From contig CAVNZM010000005.1 of NCBI GenBank assembly GCA_963693365.1, positions 10,315,728 through 10,379,727 of the forward strand: DNA of 64,000 bases. The letters are read 5' to 3'. The stretch is from Amoebidium appalachense. Taxonomy: Eukaryota > Protista > Ichthyosporea. A program made the position numbers and the translations under genes. Under the pieces are notes generated by a model. It did not search any database and had not been told where the DNA came from. It saw only the letters and a list, made by a program, of their open reading frames with translations. Shown here piece after piece: positions 1,691 through 58,824 of this stretch (position 1 is its first letter; each line of letters begins with the position of its first letter).

Positions 1691-1780
1691 CGGGGCCTGG
1701 GGGGGGCGCCTGTGGCACACAGACCCGTGAGACCACTGTGCCTTCCGTGCCTCGCGTGCCCCTCATGCCCCCAGGCCCCG
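1691..1780 (+). repeat. Intergenic hairpin element, copy 1
   Basis: CGGGGCCTGGGGG...CCCCCAGGCCCCG arms around a GTGCCT-repeat core, similar to the copies at about 3887 and 4876. Confidence 0.75.
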
Positions 1781-2042: not shown

Positions 2043-2909
2043 TTGTTGCCGTGTGACGTAAAGGTCGATTTTGATAGTTTGTGGTACTTTATCTGTCGGT
2101 TCAACACCGTGATGTCTCAACTCAGCGAAGGGGCGGTTGTGCGCTGCCTCCACCTGGTGCGCACGTTTTTGGATAACGATAAGAGCAGCGCTTTGTTCAT
2201 GCAGGGATACACAACGCACCACCTAGTGTTATACATCAAGCACCTGATGGAATTGGAAATAAACGAAAAGGTCCCAGTCGAACACATTGAGAGGCTGATC
2301 TCCTGCCCCGATGAAATGTCCGAACACACGCGCTCATCGAAGAAACTGAAAAACGTCGTTATAGCAGTTCGCGAGCTGTTCCCCACACCGTGGGTTTGGA
2401 AGGGGATTGATCCAGGCACGTTTACGGTGGAGCTCGCTAGGGAGGTCCATCGCAAGGTCATGGACGGGCTGCTCGATAGCGCTGGACGGTATCGGGTGCG
2501 CTTTGCGCTTCCCGCAGGCTGCAGTCATCAGTACCTTGCACCGTTCAAGATCGAAGAGGCTCTCAAGCGCCTGTTCGAAAGGACACGCATTGAACTCCAA
2601 GGCTGCAATGACGTTCTCGGTGCCATACAGGTCACTGCCCGTTTCCTCGGGGAGTACCTCTACATCCACCCGTTCAGCAACGGCAACGGGCGCGTCGCCC
2701 GTCTGTTGGTCAGCGTGCTGCTCTCGCCCTATATTGCCGTTCCTCTCTCGTTGTACACAGACCGCAGCTCCCGCGAGCGCTACCACTCGCTGCTGCTGGC
2801 CGCGCAGAGCCAGCCGCCCCCCCACGACTACTCCGAGCTGGCGGCCTTCGTGCTGGACTGCGCAAGGGCAAACCTGGTCTCGGTGTGCAACGCCCTGGAT
2901 TTGGAATGA
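2043..2909 (+). CDS. Fic/Doc domain protein (putative AMPylase)
   Basis: Canonical motif YIHPFSNGNGRVARLL (HPFxxGNGRxxR) with upstream HRKVM...AGRYR. First in-frame ATG is 2112; the true start may lie further 5' across a frameshift at about 2040. Confidence 0.92.
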   Translation: MLPCDVKVDFDSLWYFICRFNTVMSQLSEGAVVRCLHLVRTFLDNDKSSALFMQGYTTHHLVLYIKHLMELEINEKVPVEHIERLISCPDEMSEHTRSSKKLKNVVIAVRELFPTPWVWKGIDPGTFTVELAREVHRKVMDGLLDSAGRYRVRFALPAGCSHQYLAPFKIEEALKRLFERTRIELQGCNDVLGAIQVTARFLGEYLYIHPFSNGNGRVARLLVSVLLSPYIAVPLSLYTDRSSRERYHSLLLAAQSQPPPHDYSELAAFVLDCARANLVSVCNALDLE

Positions 2910-2940
2910 AGCGTCAGCTCTTATCGCGCCCTACATCAAC

Positions 2941-3816
2941 ATGGACACACCCTCCCAAGCCAGGACACGTGTGCGGATCCTGCTGCCCGGGGGCGGCGTC
3001 AAGGGCTGCTTCCAAGTCGGGTTCATGCAGGGGATGCTCGCGTCGGGGCTGTACCAGGTCGACAGGGTGTACGGCACGTCCGTCGGCGCGCTGGTGGCGC
3101 CGTTCGTGGTTGCCGACCGCCTGGACGACCTGGCGCGCGAGCTGGGGACGCTGAAGTGCGTGGAGGACATTGTGGAACCGTGGGGCGGCGCAATGGCGCT
3201 GCTTCCGAAAAGCTGGAGGACGGTTGTGGGGTCATTGCTGTACGGGGCGGCGTACAGCCGCTTCACCCTGCAGGAGCGTGCGGCGGCGCTTCTGGAGGGC
3301 ATCGACGCGGACATCTACACGCGCTGCCACTGCGTCGCCTGGGACTTCCTCAACAAGAAGGAGCGGTGGTTCACAGGGCCCGAGTACCAGGTCGGCATGC
3401 GCGCGTCTTCGGCCCTTCCACTCGCGGTCCCCCCCGTCGAGTACGGCGGCACCGTGTTTCTGGACGGCGGGGTCTCTGAGCTGGTGCCCCTCACCAAGGC
3501 ACTCGAGGATGCCGCAGATGGGTTCGACGGCATCTACGTCACGGTGCTGTGCGACTCGCTGGCGCACTGCCCCGCAGAATCCGTGCCAAAAACGGGCATG
3601 GAGCTCTGCTATGCTCTGCAGCGTGACTCGGGCACCGAGCTGGCGGCCACCGAGTTCGCCAACCTCCGCACCCGCCTCGGAGACCGCCTCGTGGTGGTCG
3701 CTCCGGAGCGGAGGCTGTTTGGTTCGCCCATGGACGTCGACCCCGGGAAGGTCGCGCGGGCGCTTGCGGATGGCCGCACGGCGTTTGCTGCCTGGGCCGC
3801 CGCCGCACGTCAATAA
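2941..3816 (+). CDS. Patatin-like phospholipase
   Basis: LPGGGVKG oxyanion loop, YGTSVGA nucleophile elbow (GxSxG), ASSALP, and FLDGG catalytic Asp. ATG at 2941. Confidence 0.93.
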   Translation: MDTPSQARTRVRILLPGGGVKGCFQVGFMQGMLASGLYQVDRVYGTSVGALVAPFVVADRLDDLARELGTLKCVEDIVEPWGGAMALLPKSWRTVVGSLLYGAAYSRFTLQERAAALLEGIDADIYTRCHCVAWDFLNKKERWFTGPEYQVGMRASSALPLAVPPVEYGGTVFLDGGVSELVPLTKALEDAADGFDGIYVTVLCDSLAHCPAESVPKTGMELCYALQRDSGTELAATEFANLRTRLGDRLVVVAPERRLFGSPMDVDPGKVARALADGRTAFAAWAAAARQ

Positions 3817-3886
3817 ACCCGGGTCCAGTCCATATCTGCCACCCATCCGGGCCTGGGGGGCTGGGGGGGGCTGGGGGGGGGCTGGA

Positions 3887-3979
3887 GGGGGCTGGGAGGG
3901 GCTCCTGTGGCGCACGTGCCACGCGTGCCTCCTGTGCCTCGCGTGCCTCGCGTGCCTCACGCGCCCCCTCCCAGCCCCC
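3887..3979 (+). repeat. Intergenic hairpin element, copy 2
   Basis: GGGGCTGGGAGGGG...CCCCTCCCAGCCCC arms; core GCCACGCGTGCCTCCTGTGCCTCGCGTGCCTC. Confidence 0.8.
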
Positions 3980-4124
3980 CAAGCCCCGCGCAGTGTCTAT
4001 GCAAGTTGTTTGAGACATATTGCAAGACCTGCTTGCTCACTGGCGCCAGGTTTATTGGGTGATGGTCCAATGCACCTTTGCCCCAATGGTGGGGTGGTGG
4101 GGTGGTGGGGGCCTGGGGGCGCTC

Positions 4125-4811
4125 CTAATCCTGAAAGATCCTTGAAGCCCACAGGTAGTAGCAGTCTGACTTGCCACTGGCACCTGTTGGTGGGTGCAGT
4201 GGCCATTTGCAAACTCTAGGTTCGAGCGTGCATTTTGTGTGTCCAAGAATTTTTGTAATGGCCATCCCGAATGCCCGAGTGCTTGGCATAGGAGTTTGGG
4301 CAGCGTTGACGTTGTGCCATTCCTGAAAAAGCTGATACAGCCCGGTTGATGTCACGGCACAACCGTTGTGGATGAATGTGAAATTTTCACACCCGTTTCT
4401 GTGTGACAACAGATCCCTTAGGAATTGCATCTCATTGTTAGCTGATGTGCAGACTGCCACTGGCTTTTCGGCCTCCACATCCAGCGCTGGAAGTGGGCTC
4501 CAAATGAGCTGCAAGGTGTCTGGTTCGATCGTGGCTCTGATGCCCAGGAGCGCCATCGTTTCGATCGCCACTTTCAAGCAATCTAGGGACGCAATATCGA
4601 ACAGATGTACCCGAGGTCGATGGTTCGGACAGTAGGCTTGATAGCACAGGACCTGCCCAACGGCGGATTTCCATTTAGAAGCGCGCTTGACTTCGATGAC
4701 TTCCGTGGCCGTCAGCAGGTCGATCCGTCCTGCGGGCGTGCGTACCTCAATGGTTCCACCTTCGAGCTTGGCCAGCCTATCCCTGACATATGACTCGTCG
4801 TAGGTAGCCAT
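4125..4811 (-). CDS. PD-(D/E)xK-like nuclease domain fused to a D5-type C-terminal winged-helix domain
   Basis: EVRTPAGRIDLLTATEVIEVKRASKWKSAVGQVLCY (D...ExK, GQxxxY). C-terminus FLRDLLSHRNGCENF...LYQLFQEW...STRAFGMAITKILG aligns with the helicase C-terminus. Confidence 0.78.
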   Translation of the reverse strand: MATYDESYVRDRLAKLEGGTIEVRTPAGRIDLLTATEVIEVKRASKWKSAVGQVLCYQAYCPNHRPRVHLFDIASLDCLKVAIETMALLGIRATIEPDTLQLIWSPLPALDVEAEKPVAVCTSANNEMQFLRDLLSHRNGCENFTFIHNGCAVTSTGLYQLFQEWHNVNAAQTPMPSTRAFGMAITKILGHTKCTLEPRVCKWPLHPPTGASGKSDCYYLWASRIFQD

Positions 4812-4875
4812 CACTTACAACACAAGAAAATAAAAATCACCCGCAGTCGATTGTTGGTTGCCAGTGGGTGGCTGG

Positions 4876-4968
4876 GGGTGGCTGGGAGGGGCCTGTGTGC
4901 ACCGGTGCCCCGTCAGCCACGCGTGCCTCCTGTGCCTCGCGTGCCTCACGCGCCCCTCCCAGCCACCC
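4876..4968 (+). repeat. Intergenic hairpin element, copy 3
   Basis: GGGTGGCTGGGAGGGG...CCCCTCCCAGCCACCC arms; same core as copy 2. Confidence 0.8.
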
Positions 4969-4971
4969 GGG

Positions 4972-5268
4972 CTAGTTTCGGGTCCGATTCGGGCTCCCCG
5001 GTTCTTTGGTGTGCTGCTGCATGTGCCGCTTGAGGCTCAAGGCATACCGAAACTGACGCCCGCACCCCGCATGCGCGCACACGTGCCGCAGAATCCCCGC
5101 ATGCCTGTCGCTGTGCGCCGCAAAGTTGCTGTTGCGGGTGGTGGAGTAGCCGCAACCGTCGACTGTGCACCGATACACCTTGTACTCCTTGACCATGACT
5201 GGGCCTAGCTCAGACCTGCACGTGCATGGAAACATTATGTTACTGAAGGAACGGAAAATATTTTCCAT
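4972..5268 (-). CDS. Small protein with two C2H2 zinc fingers
   Basis: YRCTVDGCGYSTTRNSNFAAHSDRH and HVCAHAGCGRQFRYALSLKRHMQQH. ATG at 5268. Confidence 0.85.
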   Translation of the reverse strand: MENIFRSFSNIMFPCTCRSELGPVMVKEYKVYRCTVDGCGYSTTRNSNFAAHSDRHAGILRHVCAHAGCGRQFRYALSLKRHMQQHTKEPGSPNRTRN

Positions 5269-5361
5269 GGTCACGGACTCTGTCACTGCAGGTCGCTGCT
5301 GATTTGCCTGAGGGGCTGATGGTGGGTGACCTGTCTCCCTTGCTCCGCAGGCCCGCACGCA

Positions 5362-5373
5362 GGTATATAAGCA
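5362..5373. promoter_or_regulatory. TATA box in the divergent C2H2/helicase intergenic region
   Basis: GGTATATAAGC lies about 95 bp from each divergent ATG. Confidence 0.45.
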
Positions 5374-5460
5374 CGCACCCGACCGGTTCCGGTCACAGTC
5401 TTGATCTTTGCTTCGAGTGTGACAGGCGACGACGAGAAAATATTTTCTATACAACCTGTA

Positions 5461-6894
5461 ATGCTGGCGACACCTACCTCTAAGCGGCAGCGCGGGGACG
5501 CCGAAGCCATGGTCGCCCGCCGCCTATTCCTGGCTACTAACGACGGACAACCACGCTTTGTGTCTTCAAGTTGCATTGGTCGCTGGGCTGACTTGAACCA
5601 CATTATGCAGTTCCTACAGTCAAAGGTGGCAAGTGTGGTACATGCAAGCAACACGTACATCGTCAAGCTCAGCAGCGGCAGCAAGTCAGTTTTTGAGATC
5701 ATGGGGAAGGACGCAGTCGCTACCAAGTTGGCCTCGATGCAGTTTCTGTACATCACAACAGACAAGAAGGGAAACCCAGTGGAGAATTGGTACAAGGGTG
5801 AGAACTACCTGCGCGAGCCTGTGTGCACGTGGTTTGAGCGTATTGTTTTTGACCCCTCCGATCCCAACTGCACCTCCGAGGACAACCTGTACAACTTCAA
5901 CACGTACAAGGGCATGACCTTTGACCCCATTGACGGGTTCAGAGTGGAGATCGACCGGGTGAGACCAATGCTTTGGCATTTGGAGAGGGTGATGGCAGCT
6001 GACAACCCCGTAATGGGAGATTTCCTCACTACCTGGTGTGCCCACATCATCCAACACCCAGGGACCAAGCCCGACAGTTGTTGTCTGTTTATTTCCAAAC
6101 AGGGAACAGGCAAAGGTGTCTTCTGGACCATATTTTCCAAGCTGCTCGGCGAGCGCCTCGTGGTCACCGTGAACAGCAAGCATCGCTTGGTCGGAAACTT
6201 CAACAACCACTTGGCAGACAGGCTGTTGGTGCTGGTGGATGAAGTCATGTTTGGTGGTGAACATGCAGTCAACAACCAGCTCAAGAACATGATAACCGAT
6301 ACCACCATGGTAATCGAGCGTAAGGGTATTGACTCAATGACCCGCCGGTCTTGCGAACGTTACGTCTTCATGTCAAACGAAGAGTGGCCGCTGCGCGTTG
6401 AGGCAAGCGACCGAAGAAGCGCCTGTTTCGAAGTGTCACCTATGAAAGTCGGTGATTCCGAATACTTCAGCAACCTCAGGGCCCACTTTGACGACAAAAC
6501 TAACCTTGAGCACCTTTTTCATTTCTTCTACCAGCATCGCCCAAACGGAAATCCCGTGGCTTTGTTCCTTCCACCACCCGATTCCACACTCAAGGACGAG
6601 CTAAAAGCCATGTGCCGCGACGACTACGTTACCTTCCTGAAAGATCTTGTGGCCTGTCGGAATGGATGCGAACACATGGGTGTCTCTGATGGAACAGTCA
6701 CCGACTCAGCGAATATGCTGAATTTGTTCAAGGAGTGGTGCGAGAAAAACGGCAAGGACCCCAAAAGAGCAAGCTTGACCATAATGGGCAGAACACTCAA
6801 AAGGGTGTTTGGCGAAAGGGTTTCAGTTCACGTCCCCAACTCCACCCCCACCAAAGGCTACCGGGTAGCTTTTGCCAAGGTCGTAGAACATTAA
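5461..6894 (+). CDS. D5-like / DUF5906 superfamily 3 helicase with C-terminal winged helix and no primase domain
   Basis: Walker A SKQGTGKG, Walker B LVLVDE, LKNMITD...IERKGID, motif C YVFMSN, Arg finger SDRR; upstream FDP...FNTYKG; C-terminal LFKEWCEKNG...MGRTLKRVFG. Confidence 0.92.
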   Translation: MLATPTSKRQRGDAEAMVARRLFLATNDGQPRFVSSSCIGRWADLNHIMQFLQSKVASVVHASNTYIVKLSSGSKSVFEIMGKDAVATKLASMQFLYITTDKKGNPVENWYKGENYLREPVCTWFERIVFDPSDPNCTSEDNLYNFNTYKGMTFDPIDGFRVEIDRVRPMLWHLERVMAADNPVMGDFLTTWCAHIIQHPGTKPDSCCLFISKQGTGKGVFWTIFSKLLGERLVVTVNSKHRLVGNFNNHLADRLLVLVDEVMFGGEHAVNNQLKNMITDTTMVIERKGIDSMTRRSCERYVFMSNEEWPLRVEASDRRSACFEVSPMKVGDSEYFSNLRAHFDDKTNLEHLFHFFYQHRPNGNPVALFLPPPDSTLKDELKAMCRDDYVTFLKDLVACRNGCEHMGVSDGTVTDSANMLNLFKEWCEKNGKDPKRASLTIMGRTLKRVFGERVSVHVPNSTPTKGYRVAFAKVVEH

Positions 6895-6911
6895 ACACCA
6901 TGACGGTGCTA

Positions 6912-7175
6912 ATAGACACATAGACAGCTAGACACTTGACCCCGTACCTGTGGTAGGATGCCCCATGGACACCATTTGTATAGTAGGAATCGGATATTTT
7001 TACTCTTCCCCCCCGACCGCCAATCCTGCTGTCTATGTGTCTATCTGTCTATGAACTCCTTATTTCATATATGTATTAACTATATTTATATATAAAAATG
7101 TATAGACACATACTAGTCACAAGCATTCCTCTAGACAGATCCGCTAGACAGGTCCATAGACACCTTCTAGACACC
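6912..7175. promoter_or_regulatory. Origin-like iteron module A (TAGACA)
   Basis: TAGACA at 6913, 6921, 6929; inverted TGTCTA at 7030, 7038, 7046; AT-rich 7060-7102; TAGACA at 7103, 7132, 7145, 7157, 7168. Confidence 0.7.
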
Positions 7176-7664: not shown

Positions 7665-8375
7665 CTACAATGATCTTTGGCAACCTTGTTTTTCTTTGTC
7701 ATATATATGGTCAATTTGATAGCTGTTCGATCTTGTGTCCAGAGCGGTGGTTGTAAAAGGCAACAACAACAACCCACTGCAAGTGTCACAAAGGGCACGC
7801 TGTGGGTGCATTAACACAAACAACAAGACCCCCCCCCCCCCCCTGAGCGCCAGCACGCGGCAAGCAGCACGAGCAGCACCATGCATGCAAGCGCTACGGT
7901 CCACAACACAGGTGTGGAAGAGGAAGTGGCAATTTTTATTTACTCCTCGTGTCCAGCACGGCCGCGCTTCTCGGTGGGCGCCGAAGTGTCCTCGGGCGAC
8001 CGCGCGCGCTTCTTCTCGGGGGGGCTTCTTGTCGAGGCGCTCCTCCTCGGAGCTCAAGATGCAAATGGGGCGCTCCTCGGCGGGGTACTCCTCGGCGGAG
8101 GACTCCTCGGGGTCGCTGAGGTTCTTCAGGGTCCTCCATGTCATACGGTACAGGCTCACGCTGGCCTTGAGGTGCAGATACTTCTTGCGCAGCACCTTGT
8201 ACTTGCGCCGCAGCTCCAGCTCGCTGGCGCGCGCACGGTCGAGGTCACGCTTTGCCTCCTCGTACAGGTACTGCTGCCATTCGGGAGGCCACGCGGCAAA
8301 TGACCCTGGGGGCCGTGGACTGGCAGGCTGCTCGGCTGGGTCAGGGCCGGCCTTTGGAGATGGTGGACCGGACAT
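7665..8375 (-). CDS. Coiled-coil hypothetical protein (true end probably about 7936 after a homopolymer frameshift)
   Basis: WPPEWQQYLYEEAKRDLDRARASELELRRKYKVLRKKYLHLK. The frame after the G7 run at about 8018 gives RRSARGRPRTLRRPPRSAAVLDTRSK* followed by AATAAA. Confidence 0.6.
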   Translation of the reverse strand: MSGPPSPKAGPDPAEQPASPRPPGSFAAWPPEWQQYLYEEAKRDLDRARASELELRRKYKVLRKKYLHLKASVSLYRMTWRTLKNLSDPEESSAEEYPAEERPICILSSEEERLDKKPPREEARAVARGHFGAHREARPCWTRGVNKNCHFLFHTCVVDRSACMHGAARAACRVLALRGGGGVLLFVLMHPQRALCDTCSGLLLLPFTTTALDTRSNSYQIDHIYDKEKQGCQRSL

Positions 8376-8735: not shown

Positions 8736-10106
8736 ATGTTCCACACAAGTTTTCGTCCACGCACTGGAATTGACAATCCAGTTAAACGGTGCGGGCTTTT
8801 ACCATTCGCCGTCCGCCTCCATTACTCGGATGCCAAGGATCAGTATGACGCCATTGTCTATGCGCTGAACGACAAATTTCAGCTCGAAAAGACCGTTGTC
8901 AGGGCCCACATGCTGGACATTGGAAGAGACGGCGACCTCCGCATCTTCGACACAAAGGAGCTCTTTGATGGTTTCCGTTCAGCCTTTGAGAATGAGATGT
9001 CCTTTGTGCCGACACGGTTGCAAACCCTCCTGGGGCAGGAGGGGCTTGAGGAGGCTGCGCGACACCTCCTGCTTAAGCATAGGCACTCTCTCGCATTCCC
9101 GTTCTACACCGCCTTCCAGCGCTACGTCCTAGGGGCGGCGGACTATGACGCGTTTTATGAGGGCAAAATCTGCGACGGGGTTGGCAGCTTTTTCCTGCTG
9201 ACGGTGAGGGCGCTGTGCAAGCGGTCCGGTCTGACAGCCCGTCCCATCGCATACTTCAGCCAACAGCCAGTCGATTCCCCCTTGGGTGTGTTTACATCCA
9301 GCGTTGGGGAAGATGCCATGGACGACGTTGTGTTCTGTGAATTGGCTGAACGTGCCATCCAGCACTTTGTGGACAAGTTACCGTCCACGTCGTGTCTCGC
9401 CAAGGAGCCCCCTACCCACCCCCCCGAGCCGATAGATTCTTTGTCCAAACACCAGATCGTCGTCCACACCTTCGATGCCCACTTGCATTTGCAATCGGAC
9501 CCCGTCTGCGACCTGATGCTGAAAGTTCTCCACGACAGAGACCTCCGTGTCTTTTCCAACAGGGAGCGCTACATGAAATGGGACGCGGTCCTGGCGGAGG
9601 AGGTGCGTATTATAGTTGAACGGACACAGAGGGGGGACCCAACGGTGACGAGGGCCGACCGCAATAAGGCTGTGTACTTCACGGGGGTCAGGCACTTCGC
9701 GGTCTTCCAGCGCTACGTGGTGCGGGAGCCGGACTACACTGCCGCGCACGCAGGCAACCTCAGCAGGGGAGCCGAAACCGTCATGAAGATGGCGATGCGG
9801 GTACTGTGCGAGTCTGCCGGCCTCACCCCATGCACCATGGACGAAATGGCTCGGCGGCGTGCGAGGATGGCAAGCCCTAACTATTGGCTCGCGCTGGACA
9901 TCGAGCAACTGTGTCTGATTGACTGGTGCAACCGGGCCATCAAGGACTTCGTCGATCAGCTGCCGTCGTCGGTGTGTCTGGCCTGCGGCGCTACCCGTTG
10001 CACCAAGAAGTGCTCAGCCTGCAGGCGCGCATACTACTGCAATGAGGCCTGCCAGATTACGCATTGGCATGAGCACAGGGAGGAATGCCAGAGTCAGGAC
10101 CATTAG
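8736..10106 (+). CDS. MYND zinc-finger protein with an internally duplicated domain of about 210 aa
   Basis: C-terminal CLACG...KKCSACRRAYYCNEACQITHWHEHREEC. Repeats FQRYVL..DY...RALCKRSGLT...RAIQHFVDKLPSTSCLA and FQRYVV..DY...RVLCESAGLT...RAIKDFVDQLPSSVCLA. TATA CATATAAAAG at about 8658. Confidence 0.9.
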   Translation: MFHTSFRPRTGIDNPVKRCGLLPFAVRLHYSDAKDQYDAIVYALNDKFQLEKTVVRAHMLDIGRDGDLRIFDTKELFDGFRSAFENEMSFVPTRLQTLLGQEGLEEAARHLLLKHRHSLAFPFYTAFQRYVLGAADYDAFYEGKICDGVGSFFLLTVRALCKRSGLTARPIAYFSQQPVDSPLGVFTSSVGEDAMDDVVFCELAERAIQHFVDKLPSTSCLAKEPPTHPPEPIDSLSKHQIVVHTFDAHLHLQSDPVCDLMLKVLHDRDLRVFSNRERYMKWDAVLAEEVRIIVERTQRGDPTVTRADRNKAVYFTGVRHFAVFQRYVVREPDYTAAHAGNLSRGAETVMKMAMRVLCESAGLTPCTMDEMARRRARMASPNYWLALDIEQLCLIDWCNRAIKDFVDQLPSSVCLACGATRCTKKCSACRRAYYCNEACQITHWHEHREECQSQDH

Positions 10107-10892: not shown

Positions 10893-11411
10893 ATGGCTTT
10901 TGAGCAGGACCTGAAGCTATTTGTCAATCGGCTGTCGCTGCTTGTATCCAGCATGACGTTCGACTCGAACGGCGCCGGCAGGGTGGCGAGACGGCCGCTA
11001 CAGCTCCACGCAAGACTCGGCAAGGGCGACACGATGCTGTCGGACACGATGCTGCCGCTGCAGTCGGTGGAAACGTCGAACAGGACTGGACTCAACCACC
11101 TGGTGTTTTCGACGTGTCCACTGGAGGGGGCCGGGGATGCGGTGACCATCGACCTGGATTGGGGCAAGTCGTTTCGGCTGACCTGGGAGCGCTGGGACAC
11201 CACGCTGTCGCTGCTGCCACCGAGGGATCCGACGGAGGAGGAGGGCATGAGCGAGGGACGAGCTGTCCCCATGGAGGCAAAGAGAAAACGAACAACCCTT
11301 CTGCGAATCGACTTTTTGAAGGACTTCCTTTGGCATGACATGGGGTGCGACATTCTGTCGCTGCAGTTATATGAATCAGTACAGAAAAATAGGCGGCAGT
11401 GTAGAGAATAA
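10893..11411 (+). CDS. Hypothetical protein
   Basis: ATG in ACCATGG context 60 bp after GGTATAAAAG; 172-aa ORF with GC3 bias; no recognised motif. Confidence 0.6.
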   Translation: MAFEQDLKLFVNRLSLLVSSMTFDSNGAGRVARRPLQLHARLGKGDTMLSDTMLPLQSVETSNRTGLNHLVFSTCPLEGAGDAVTIDLDWGKSFRLTWERWDTTLSLLPPRDPTEEEGMSEGRAVPMEAKRKRTTLLRIDFLKDFLWHDMGCDILSLQLYESVQKNRRQCRE

Positions 11412-11613: not shown

Positions 11614-11878
11614 TGAGTAACAATATCTTACTCAGGGTACTCATTCTGAGTAACACAGACAAGTTTCCCCCACTAGATGTTACTCACCCAAATATGGTAA
11701 AGGTTTCCTTTTTAGGTATAAAAATATGCAATTGTCATATAGTGAGTAGGATGAGTAGAATGAGTACGTACTCATCTACTGTGGGCTACGGGTATACCTA
11801 AATCTCAATCCAAAAGGAAATTGGAACACCCGGGGGGAGACCAGATGAGTAGGTACTCAAGCTACTCATCCTACTCAC
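11614..11878. promoter_or_regulatory. Origin-like iteron module B (TGAGTA)
   Basis: Scattered TGAGTA/TACTCA at 11614-11686, AT-rich 11705-11740, then an inverted repeat of about 35 bp (11742-11776 vs 11844-11878), each arm holding three 9-bp-period iterons plus one inverted copy. Confidence 0.7.
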
Positions 11879-11887
11879 CCCATCACT

Positions 11888-12031
11888 GCCTATAGGCATG
11901 CCCCGTGTGCAGGGCACTGATTTCTGCCCTCTTCTGGTTGGTGCCAAGAGGCAGTGCCCTACACATGTGGTGTCTAAACAGCCTATAGGCATGCTCTGTG
12001 TGCAGGGCACTGATTTCTACCCTCTTCTGGT
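11888..12031 (-). repeat. About 1.5 inverted copies of the 92-bp palindromic unit
   Basis: Reverse complement of the 16824-17706 array unit, with a few substitutions. Confidence 0.92.
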
Positions 12032-14114: not shown

Positions 14115-14925
14115 TGCAGGTGTACTTAACATTGAGTGTACTTAGGGTGGGGCTGTGCAGACGTGTACTTAAAGGGTGGGGCTGTGCAGACGTGTACTTA
14201 GGATGGTGCAGACGTGTACTTAAAGGGTGGGGCTGTGCAGACGTGTACTTAAAGGGTGGGGCTGTGCAGACGTGTACTTAGGGCTGTGCAGAGGTGTACT
14301 TAGGGTGGTGCAGAGGTGTACTTAGGGTGGTGCAGAGGTGTACTTAGGGTGGTGCAGACGTGTACTTAGGGTGGTGCAGAGGTGTACTTAGGGTGGTGCA
14401 GAGGTGTACTTAGGGCTGTGCAGAGGTGTACTTAGGGTGGTGCAGAGGTGTACTTAGGGTGGTGCAGAGGTGTACTTAGGGTGGTGCAGACGTGTACTTA
14501 GGGTGGTGCAGAGGTGTACTTAGGGTGGTGCAGACGTGTACTTAGGGTGGGGCTGTGCACCACAGTGTACTTAGGGTGGTGCAGACGTGTACTTAGGGTG
14601 GGGCTGTGCACCACAGTGTACTTAGGGTGGTGCAGACGTGTACTTAGGGTGGTGCAGAGTGTACTTAGGGTGGTGCAGAGGTGTACTTAGGGCTGTGCAG
14701 AGGTGTACTTAGGGTGGTGCAGAGGTGTACTTAGGGTGGTGCAGAGGTGTACTTAGGGTGGTGCAGACGTGTACTTAGGGTGGTGCAGAGGTGTACTTAG
14801 GGTGGTGCAGACGTGTACTTAGGGTGGGGCTGTGCACCACAGTGTACTTAGGGTGGTGCAGACGTGTACTTAGGGTGGGGCTGTGCACCACAGTGTACTT
14901 AGGGTGGTGCAGACGTGTACTTAGG
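14115..14925 (+). repeat. 22-bp G-rich minisatellite containing TTAGGG
   Basis: Unit GTGTACTTAGGGTGGTGCAGA(G/C), with variants GTGTACTTAGGGCTGTGCAGAG and GTGTACTTAGGGTGGGGCTGTGCACCACA; more than 30 units. Confidence 0.95.
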
Positions 14926-16823: not shown

Positions 16824-17706
16824 AAATTAGTGCCCTGCACACGGAGCATGACTATAGGCTGTTTAGACACCACACGTGTAGGGCACTGCCTCTTGGCACC
16901 AACCAGAAGAGGGTAGAAATTGTGCCCTGCACACGGAGCATGCCTATAGGCTGTTTAGACACCACACGTGTAGGGCACTGCCTCTTGGCACCAACCAGAA
17001 GAGGGTAGAAATTGTGCCCTGCACACGGAGCATGACTATAGGCTGTTTAGACACCACACGTGTAGGGCACTGCCTCTTGGCACCAACCAGAAGAGGGTAG
17101 AAATTGTGCCCTGCACACGGAGCATGCCTATAGGCTGTTTAGACACCACACGTGTAGGGCACTGCCTCTTGGCACCAACCAGAAGAGGGTAGAAATTGTG
17201 CCCTGCACACGGAGCATGCCTATAGGCTGTTTAGACACCACACGTGTAGGGCACTGCCTCTTGGCACCAACCAGAAGAGGGTAGAAATTGTGCCCTGCAC
17301 ACGGAGCATGCCTATAGGCTGTTTAGACACCACACGTGTAGGGCACTGCCTCTTGGCACCAACCAGAAGAGGGTAGAAATTGTGCCCTGCACACGGAGCA
17401 TGCCTATAGGCTGTTTAGACACCACACGTGTAGGGCACTGCCTCTTGGCACCAACCAGAAGAGGGTAGAAATTGTGCCCTGCACACGGAGCATGCCTATA
17501 GGCTGTTTAGACACCACACGTGTAGGGCACTGCCTCTTGGCACCAACCAGAAGAGGGTAGAAATTGTGCCCTGCACACGGAGCATGCCTATAGGCTGTTT
17601 AGACACCACACGTGTAGGGCACTGCCTCTTGGCACCAACCAGAAGAGGGTAGAAATTGTGCCCTGCACACGGAGCATGCCTATAGGCTGTTTAGACACCA
17701 CACGTG
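16824..17706 (+). repeat. 92-bp tandem array, about 9.5 nearly identical palindromic units
   Basis: Units start at about 16830, 16921, 17013, 17105 ... 17657. TGTGCCCTGCACACGGAGCATGCCTATAGGCTGTTTAGACACCACACGTGTAGGGCACTGCCTCTTGGCACCAACCAGAAGAGGGTAGAAAT. Confidence 0.97.
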
Positions 17707-18256: not shown

Positions 18257-18360
18257 ATGGCCACATGGCCAGATGGCCAGATCATTTTGCTCACCGTTTT
18301 ATCCCGTTTTATCCACCTTTTTCCACACACTGAATTTGACCTGGCCATCTGGCCATCTGG
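18257..18360. promoter_or_regulatory. Iteron / inverted-repeat module C (TGGCCA)
   Basis: TGGCCA at 18258, 18266, 18274 (8-bp period); 20-bp inverted repeat 18261-18280 vs 18341-18360 with 1 mismatch; short AT-rich tract to the left. Confidence 0.6.
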
Positions 18361-18619: not shown

Positions 18620-19240
18620 ATGGCCGCCAAAATGCTTCTTTCAGCCCTCTCTGTCGCCACCGCCGCCACGCTCGCAGCCGCCCACGGCCAGCCGCCCGAT
18701 TACTGCACCATCAACAGCATCGGCATGCTTCAATACGTCGACTTATCCGTGCAAAATCCCGTAATGAAAAACACGGAGACCCTGCGAGTTTACCCAACGA
18801 CAGTTGGAGATAACTATATGGCGCGGGCGACTATCAATGCTCCCCACAACACAAACGTCACCGCCAGCTACGTTTTCACCCTTACTGACTTGGTGCCCCC
18901 CCACAACGGTTCTGTCCCCTCGTTTTCAGATACCGTTGGCTGGTTGGGCCACAAATATTCGGTTTACAGCATGGGGTTTTGTCTTATGCAGCAAGACTTT
19001 AATACTCTTCTCCCCACTGGAACGGAGTCTTACGAAGATGAACAGCGCCCAAATCCATACACCCTCGCCACGTACACTGTAAAGGATTCTGCACTTAACC
19101 TGAGTGGGTTTGTTTTGTCTATAAACTGGTTTGACCCCATCGAGTTTCCCAACGCCTGTGGCTCTGCTGCCACACATGGCTCTGCCCCTCTTACGCAGTG
19201 CATTGTTCCTGATATGATACTGCCTGCTGAAGACAATTGA
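18620..19240 (+). CDS. Secreted hypothetical protein, intronless
   Basis: Signal peptide MAAKMLLSALSVATAATLAAAHG, 4 Cys, several NxS/T sites; CCAAT (about 18456) and TATATAAA (about 18497) upstream. Confidence 0.85.
   Translation: MAAKMLLSALSVATAATLAAAHGQPPDYCTINSIGMLQYVDLSVQNPVMKNTETLRVYPTTVGDNYMARATINAPHNTNVTASYVFTLTDLVPPHNGSVPSFSDTVGWLGHKYSVYSMGFCLMQQDFNTLLPTGTESYEDEQRPNPYTLATYTVKDSALNLSGFVLSINWFDPIEFPNACGSAATHGSAPLTQCIVPDMILPAEDN

Positions 19241-51246: not shown

Positions 51247-58824
<7,578 letters not shown>

Follow-up and report, generated by a model that had tools for sequence, protein, structure and literature searches.

Nucleases aimed at replication origins have a precedent in phage ICP1, whose Odn (Gp88) couples a nuclease with a domain sharing 42% identity with RepA_N of the satellite whose origin it cuts; cleavage requires iterons, and targets evade it by exchanging their origin and its binding domain as a pair (PMC8263062). 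Counterparts on the helicase side come from Staphylococcus aureus pathogenicity islands (SaPIs), where superfamily 3 (SF3) Rep helicases bind iterons via a C-terminal winged helix and origins comprise 6-12 short, opposed iterons placed directly after the gene around an AT-rich core (PMC9371898). A structure of the SF3 protein PriRep5 with its origin shows the wing, not the helix, reading iteron bases in the major groove (bioRxiv 10.64898/2026.10.17.759575). In polinton-like viruses, endonucleases lie beside replicases, whose movement they are suggested to drive through collaborative homing (bioRxiv 10.64898/2026.10.13.758929). Here, we analyze a 64,000-nucleotide stretch of Amoebidium appalachense DNA (the window), in which a compact gene of 228 codons encodes a predicted restriction-like nuclease joined to a winged-helix domain of the SF3-helicase C-terminal kind (Table 1). 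We consider it about evenly balanced that this predicted nuclease cuts the replication origin of a rival element, with or without homing-like spread.

The AlphaFold model of the nuclease (mean predicted local distance difference test [pLDDT] score, 89.5) resolves two domains, residues 1-104 and 121-228, with a low-confidence linker between them. The N-terminal domain contains the alpha-beta-beta-beta-alpha-beta core of the PD-(D/E)xK superfamily and, by structure comparison, superimposes on NucS (2vld; Z 9.7, root-mean-square deviation 2.6, 90 aligned residues), a structure- and mismatch-specific enzyme. Restriction-like nucleases account for most of the 12 best structure matches; the domain also matches AF1548, CdiA nucleases and Can2/Card1. 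Residues E6, D31, E40 and K42 supply the catalytic D...(D/E)xK pattern together with the upstream helix acid. These four and Q53 and Y57 are kept in 145-151 of 151 domains (150-151 for D, E and K), and all seven fusions examined carry the complete E-D-E-K-Q-Y set. The restriction-like fold that an initial annotation of this DNA had proposed from the letters is thus borne out, with an intact E-D-ExK signature. Membership of the NucS/EndoMS family is rejected, the curated family model scoring 10.9 bits against a cut-off of 216, and a Pfam scan assigned the domain to no family. The same Pfam-less domain is common in cyanobacterial genomes and plasmids (loci L026-L081). An AATAAA lies approximately 80 nt beyond the nuclease stop (near 4040-4046, read from the sequence).

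The second domain is homologous to the C terminus of the SF3 helicase encoded approximately 650 bases away. Both open reading frames lie where the initial annotation placed them and contain the segments it quoted, and its claim that the two C termini are paralogous winged helices finds support at several levels. BLASTP aligns them with 19 identities in 66 positions (29%, E 2e-8). Their Smith-Waterman score of 92 compares with 32 +/- 4.5 for shuffled sequences, none of 5000 of which reached 92, and with 40 for the reversed sequence. A profile-profile comparison of five nuclease with seven helicase C termini, from which the helicase P0022 discussed below was excluded, gave a probability of 99.2% (E 3e-19). 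AlphaFold models built separately for the two C termini (pLDDT 91 for that of the helicase) show an identical order of elements, and both match winged-helix chains. Matches common to the two are 5vfx, JetA 9qe0 and the winged helices of Cdc6/Orc1, at Z values of 4.8-6.0 that by themselves indicate a common arrangement only. The ESM Atlas places the nuclease C terminus beside Pox_D5 clusters (0.95; 176-186 features in common). Foldseek returned no match in the Protein Data Bank (PDB) at E<=0.001 for either the nuclease or the helicase C-terminal model, and a profile search of PDB sequences returned none. The top 50 VIA rows contained no D5/Pox or SaPI winged helix, although rows beyond these may still hold them. 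The shared RNGCE, described initially as a rare motif, loses that standing: NGC(E) runs across the whole winged-helix family and the preceding R varies. Two findings that would contradict the annotation, unrelated C termini and an N terminus without a restriction-like fold, were both checked for, and neither holds.

Homology does not make the adjacent helicase the donor. A search of 1.84 billion representative proteins with the nuclease gave 1,548 matches, 150 of which were listed, and it returned another SF3 helicase, P0022, through its C terminus alone. The nuclease winged helix is 50% identical to that of P0022 over 103 columns and 23% identical to that of the neighboring helicase over 91 columns, with alignment scores of 286 and 92, respectively; in their ATPase cores, P0022 and the neighbor are just 36% alike. 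The wing, the region in which the nuclease and its neighbor differ most (28 versus 16 residues), spans 27-28 residues and carries W-x-x-H-P in the nuclease and P0022, and spans 15-16 residues in the neighboring helicase and its six relatives. Approximately unbiased (AU) tests rejected placement of the nuclease winged helix as sister to the neighbor (p=5e-5) or to the neighbor's clade (p=0.001), the nuclease-with-neighbor grouping having been named beforehand in the initial annotation. The suggestion that the domain was copied from the adjacent helicase is therefore contradicted by both scores and trees. No long-wing, P0022-type helicase is encoded in the window.

The architecture itself recurs, as a search proposed in the initial annotation would detect. 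Among the 150 matches listed, at least eight other proteins carry the winged helix, located behind the nuclease in P0018, P0020, P0021, P0023, P0024 and, in part, P0041, and ahead of it in P0019 and P0097. The last of these was spotted through the grouping of its nuclease domain with the seven named fusions, and its winged helix was then confirmed (E 3e-7 among stored proteins). An NCBI assembly labelled Daphnia sinensis contains, on a contig of 183 kb, a cluster mate of P0018, which may derive from the animal itself or from an organism sequenced along with it. Nearly all of the 150 listed matches align through the nuclease domain alone, and among the 76 that were scanned its other partners include KilA-N, Bro-N, Rha and helix-turn-helix (HTH) families. 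The best viral structure matches of the nuclease include mimivirus KilA-N proteins, and giant-virus proteins display the same pairing. Because winged-helix, KilA-N, Bro-N, Rha and HTH partners all occur, the nuclease is, judged from sequence, a module that acquires DNA-binding domains.

Trees of the two domains tell different histories. The nuclease domains of the fusions cluster (eight rows, SH-like support 92, branch not starred), and none of 500 label shuffles was as clustered. A single clade of nuclease winged helices is rejected (AU p=3e-4), chiefly because that of P0170 is short-winged and 46% identical to the helicase P0007. The one-clade tests were run after the free tree had been inspected. 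In these analyses, P0170 stood in for P0023, its shorter cluster mate, P0168 and P0169 were omitted as near-copies, P0041, which lacks most of the nuclease domain, stood outside the fusions tested in the nuclease tree, and P0097 was not in the winged-helix tree. Since the nuclease domains group while their winged helices form no single clade, one nuclease lineage seems to have taken binding domains from at least two helicase lineages, a pattern of repeated capture. The overall direction of transfer is taken as helicase to nuclease, because the winged helix is widespread on D5-like helicases; single exchanges, including the one involving P0022, may be reversed.

Searches for close relatives of the window locus found none in viral contigs (queried with the helicase, a helicase alignment, P0022, the nuclease and a nuclease alignment), metagenome contigs or prokaryote genomes. 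In the 81 loci fetched, all helicases were distant (22-31%) and the nuclease domain occurred solely alongside other partners. A winged-helix profile run against 7,744 six-frame segments of these loci revealed no fusion, its best match being weak (E 0.012) and located at the end of an 808-residue frame in locus L005, and a word search with the C-terminal alignment returned four proteins, all already known. The literature searched, which covers few subscription papers, yielded no account of a nuclease fused to a helicase winged helix, and the papers found on "origin-directed nuclease" all deal with ICP1/PLE or Vibrio defence.

What the winged helix might recognize is suggested by the neighboring helicase. 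Beginning 19 bp past its stop codon is an array of 11 TAGACA hexamers (module A), arranged as three forward copies with an 8-bp period, three reverse copies with an 8-bp period and five forward copies, placed around a stretch of 14% GC at 7050-7100. The largest cluster in 30 shuffles held 4-5 copies. The iteron array noted beside the helicase in the initial annotation is supported. The likeness to SaPI Rep1 and PriRep5 extends to the helicase itself, an SF3 ATPase with a C-terminal winged helix followed by opposed iterons, and by analogy we regard module A as the putative origin of this helicase. Points of difference are the eukaryotic host, the lack of a primase fused to the helicase or found in the window, two extra iteron-like arrays without an adjoining helicase (modules B and C), and the presence of a Rep-type winged helix on a nuclease, no such nuclease appearing in the available text of the SaPI and PriRep5 accounts. 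Since the wing of the nuclease differs from that of its neighbor, its putative target is probably a repeat other than TAGACA. A separate target had been anticipated from differences in the recognition helix; the expectation stands, but in the available account of PriRep5 it is the wing that reads iteron bases. Modules B and C, offered initially as candidate targets, both exist, B being as striking an array as A and C a weak one, but nothing ties the nuclease to them.

We propose that the winged helix of the nuclease would read iterons through its wing, by analogy to SaPI Reps, and that several nuclease molecules would load on the repeats and cut both strands. As its target we envisage the origin of a co-resident element of the long-wing, P0022 type; origin A of the nuclease-bearing element itself would be spared, because the helicase there has a different wing. 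A cut beside the rival's helicase gene would stop replication of that element and could be repaired from the nuclease-bearing element, which might then spread as a homing endonuclease does. We favor rivals' origins as the target because the winged helix is closer kin to a helicase lineage other than the neighbor's, and so to the initiator of another replicon (50% identity to P0022, a presumptive origin binder, versus 23-29% to the neighbor). Among the roles listed in the initial annotation, cutting a competing element emerges as the best supported. Nicking of the element's own origin A is unlikely, because the winged helix was not copied from the adjacent helicase and sisterhood with that helicase is rejected.

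The parallel with ICP1 Odn, the nearest system known, is one of logic, a nuclease combined with an initiator-derived origin-binding domain (PMC8263062), and not of parts. Odn's nuclease is of the T5orf172/GIY-YIG type, whereas that in the window is PD-(D/E)xK; Odn binds through the RepA_N domain of the PLE initiator, whereas the domain here is an SF3-helicase C-terminal winged helix of Pox_D5 kinship. Because both domains belong to other families, the protein is not a member of the Odn family. The available account of Odn sets phage against satellite in bacteria and demonstrates activity; the protein in the window has a eukaryotic host and an activity predicted from sequence and models, and its family shows both domain orders and varying donor lineages. 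Relative to NucS/EndoMS, other PD-(D/E)xK enzymes and the domains fused to KilA-N, HTH, Rha or Bro-N, the core fold and the E-D-ExK-Q-Y residues are shared; the difference from NucS/EndoMS and from those fused domains is that the partner here is a helicase winged helix. Polinton-like viruses offer a third likeness: they too are eukaryotic elements in which a mosaic module, bracketed by repeats, pairs an endonuclease with an adjacent SF3 helicase. The homing proposal, in its available text, names no targeting domain common to helicase and endonuclease. Origin-directed nucleases have so far been described only in a bacterial virus.

Contigs assembled from four DNA runs hint at ongoing exchange within, and selection on, the nuclease gene. 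Second contigs in runs X4, X1 and X7 match 4516-4580 with 11 differences, and those of X4 and X1 are then unlike the window for at least 255 letters. By manual reading, the first 30 diverging letters encode LQTVWAPLP, against LQLIWSPLP in the window. We take this as a strong hint only of a second version of the gene that shares the 5' half, diverges deeply in the 3' half and has its junction where the nuclease domain ends, because 27 letters lie on the shared side (our bar for a bridge being 31) and the remainder of the version falls outside the contigs. Between run X19 and the window, the nuclease differs at 14 sites, 6 non-synonymous and 8 synonymous (pN/pS 0.25, p=0.01), with the catalytic residues unaffected; these differences rest on two low-depth contigs. 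At position 4553, all four runs have T and the window has C (Ala87 versus Thr), which may be a private change or an assembly error. Further contigs match the conserved nuclease core alone (4651-4740) at approximately 82-90%; therefore, the host has more diverged members of the nuclease family.

Three hairpin repeats, approximately 76% alike and with a DNA fold z of approximately -3 versus base shuffles, flank the nuclease gene and the Fic-patatin pair in the manner of cassette boundaries. Individual contigs join 2046 to 3849, 3951 to 4949 (X7) and 4972 to 3988 (X16), and the latter two joints would delete or duplicate the nuclease gene.

Several observations weigh against a rival's origin as the target. 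P0020, a fusion, and P0022, a helicase, each list a Logan contig of 7,624 bases and may be neighbors. Both are long-winged, P0022 is the best helicase match of P0020, and their sisterhood is not rejected (p=0.057), though they are just 31% identical; a nuclease may therefore share an element with a helicase whose winged helix is of the same, if diverged, type. The element's own modules B and C could likewise serve as self targets. The winged-helix tree is short (106 columns, no branch starred), and the long-wing group, aside from its common insert, is weakly supported (43/36). Other proteins join the nuclease domain to KilA-N, Bro-N or Rha domains, and we know of no origin targeting by such fusions. 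Finally, SaPI1 Rep1 is reported to be poor at telling origins apart in vitro (PMC9371898); winged helices of this kind are therefore not always specific.

The abundance of the nuclease domain among the 1,548 matching representatives, nearly all of those listed aligning through it alone, suits an ordinary viral accessory: a weak or structure-specific nuclease, or a regulator. Its winged helix would serve as a general DNA anchor that could be exchanged for the KilA-N, Bro-N and HTH partners seen in giant viruses and cyanobacteria. The Rha-containing set of partners, the mimivirus KilA-N structure matches and the specificity of NucS, the top solved match, fit such a protein. A general anchor, however, needs no swapping among helicase lineages, the captured domain retains its lineage-specific wing sequence, and the iteron array at the helicase points to sequence-specific binding by the winged-helix family; we regard this account as rather unlikely. 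A similarly unlikely proposal is a self-directed nuclease that binds and cuts module B, module C or the GTGCC units of the hairpins, and so excises, linearizes or resolves its element or shuffles the nuclease cassette. It would give modules B and C, which adjoin no helicase, a role, and it draws on the direct-repeat hairpins around the gene with their X7 and X16 joints, on the possible common contig of P0020 and P0022, and on the excision factor XisH as a fold neighbor of the nuclease domain (Z 6.7; Atlas 0.84, a lead only). A binding domain replaced time and again from various helicase lineages, however, fits a changing target more readily than one fixed within the element, and joints at repeats with a 32-base exact core, represented by one contig each, can stem from host recombination or assembly. 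A recent local duplication of the neighboring helicase C terminus, yielding a fusion directed at origin A or an accidental product with no function, is highly improbable: the genes are close and their domains homologous, but blastn detects no DNA similarity above 9-15-base words, the AU tests and wing types disagree with it, the fusion recurs in eight other proteins among the matches listed, and the X19 differences lean synonymous.

The nuclease gene lies between base 1 and ~19.4 kb of the window, a region of compact open reading frames encoding Fic, patatin, nuclease, C2H2 finger, SF3 helicase and MYND proteins. Beyond ~19.4 kb, the DNA is eukaryotic-host-like, with many simple repeats and a partial ubiquitin hydrolase gene at 51247. 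The four runs contain many variant copies of the stretch up to ~19.4 kb, which we interpret as one of multiple copies of an endogenous, virus-like element; its left end falls outside the window. The window revealed no gene for a capsid, packaging ATPase or polymerase, but the element extends beyond the window's left end, and the polinton-like virus and virophage hallmarks (double jelly-roll capsid, packaging ATPase, terminal repeats) were absent from the element open reading frames scanned. A second helicase copy in runs X4 and X7 shows 38 differences over 5460-5763 (304 bases) and has other upstream DNA, and contigs of the same runs carry a diverged helicase C terminus and origin region (window 6735-7157). 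Contig depth over the helicase is below that over the nuclease, Fic and patatin genes, a measure unsuited to ranking genes. Element open reading frames without a Pfam match are 7665-8375 (236 aa), 10893-11411 (172 aa) and 18620-19240 (206 aa, hydrophobic N terminus). The MYND-finger protein (8736-10106) contains an internally duplicated segment (DNA repeat 9104-9145 / 9695-9736). Tandem arrays occupy 14130-14925 and 16825-17705, with units of ~22 bp and ~92 bp, and sequence related to the 92-bp type lies on the opposite strand at ~11890-12030.

Table 1. Coordinates in the window of the nuclease gene, its domains and neighboring features
Feature	Position	Strand	Remarks
Nuclease-winged-helix fusion gene	4125..4811	-	228 aa from ATG at 4811; ORF (open reading frame) 4814-4125
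Predicted PD-(D/E)xK domain (restriction-like, NucS-like)	4500..4811	-	aa 1-104; E6, D31, E40, K42, Q53, Y57 conserved
D5-type winged-helix domain of nuclease, long wing (W-x-x-H-P)	4128..4439	-	aa 125-228
Departure point of second gene version, end of nuclease domain	4516..4553	-	contigs of three runs; codons 87-100
SF3 (DUF5906) helicase without primase domain	5461..6894	+	477 aa, ATG 5461, ORF 5401-6894; Walker A, Walker B and motif C intact
Helicase C-terminal winged helix, short wing	6619..6891	+	Pox_D5 E 0.014, below cut-off; model
Module A, origin-like, 11 TAGACA hexamers	6913..7173	.	starts 19 bp past helicase stop
Module B, 13 TGAGTA hexamers	11614..11877	.	both orientations, around AT-rich stretch; no helicase adjoining
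Module C, 5 TGGCCA, 8-bp period	18258..18355	.	two groups; at shuffle maximum, weak alone; no helicase adjoining
GC-rich hairpin repeat, 9-bp-period GTGCC(T/A) units	3876..3980	+	left of nuclease gene
Second hairpin-repeat copy	4866..4968	+	right of nuclease gene; 76% identical, 32-base exact core
Third hairpin-repeat copy	1692-1772		
C2H2 zinc-finger gene	4972..5268	-	between nuclease and helicase genes

Taken further, and tentatively, since we rate it somewhat below an even chance, these observations may reflect origin warfare among the eukaryotic endogenous DNA elements of this family. One nuclease lineage would have been re-aimed repeatedly, each time by taking up, at either end, the winged helix with which a rival SF3 helicase binds its origin, and its 3' half would still be swapping within one host genome. 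The nuclease would travel as a cassette bounded by hairpins, and helicase-origin modules would diversify as a means of escape. If rivals' origins are indeed the targets, the 228-aa protein would be a compact nuclease whose target could be reset through domain exchange, and a eukaryotic element would harbor helicase origins of the self-loading, SaPI-style kind. Each nuclease should then cut the repeat array behind the helicase most like its winged helix, and some unexplained nucleases of small eukaryotic DNA viruses would acquire a role. The replicase mosaicism reported in these viruses would have a concrete cause, and origin-directed nucleases would have arisen at least twice from unrelated parts and would act among eukaryotic viral elements.

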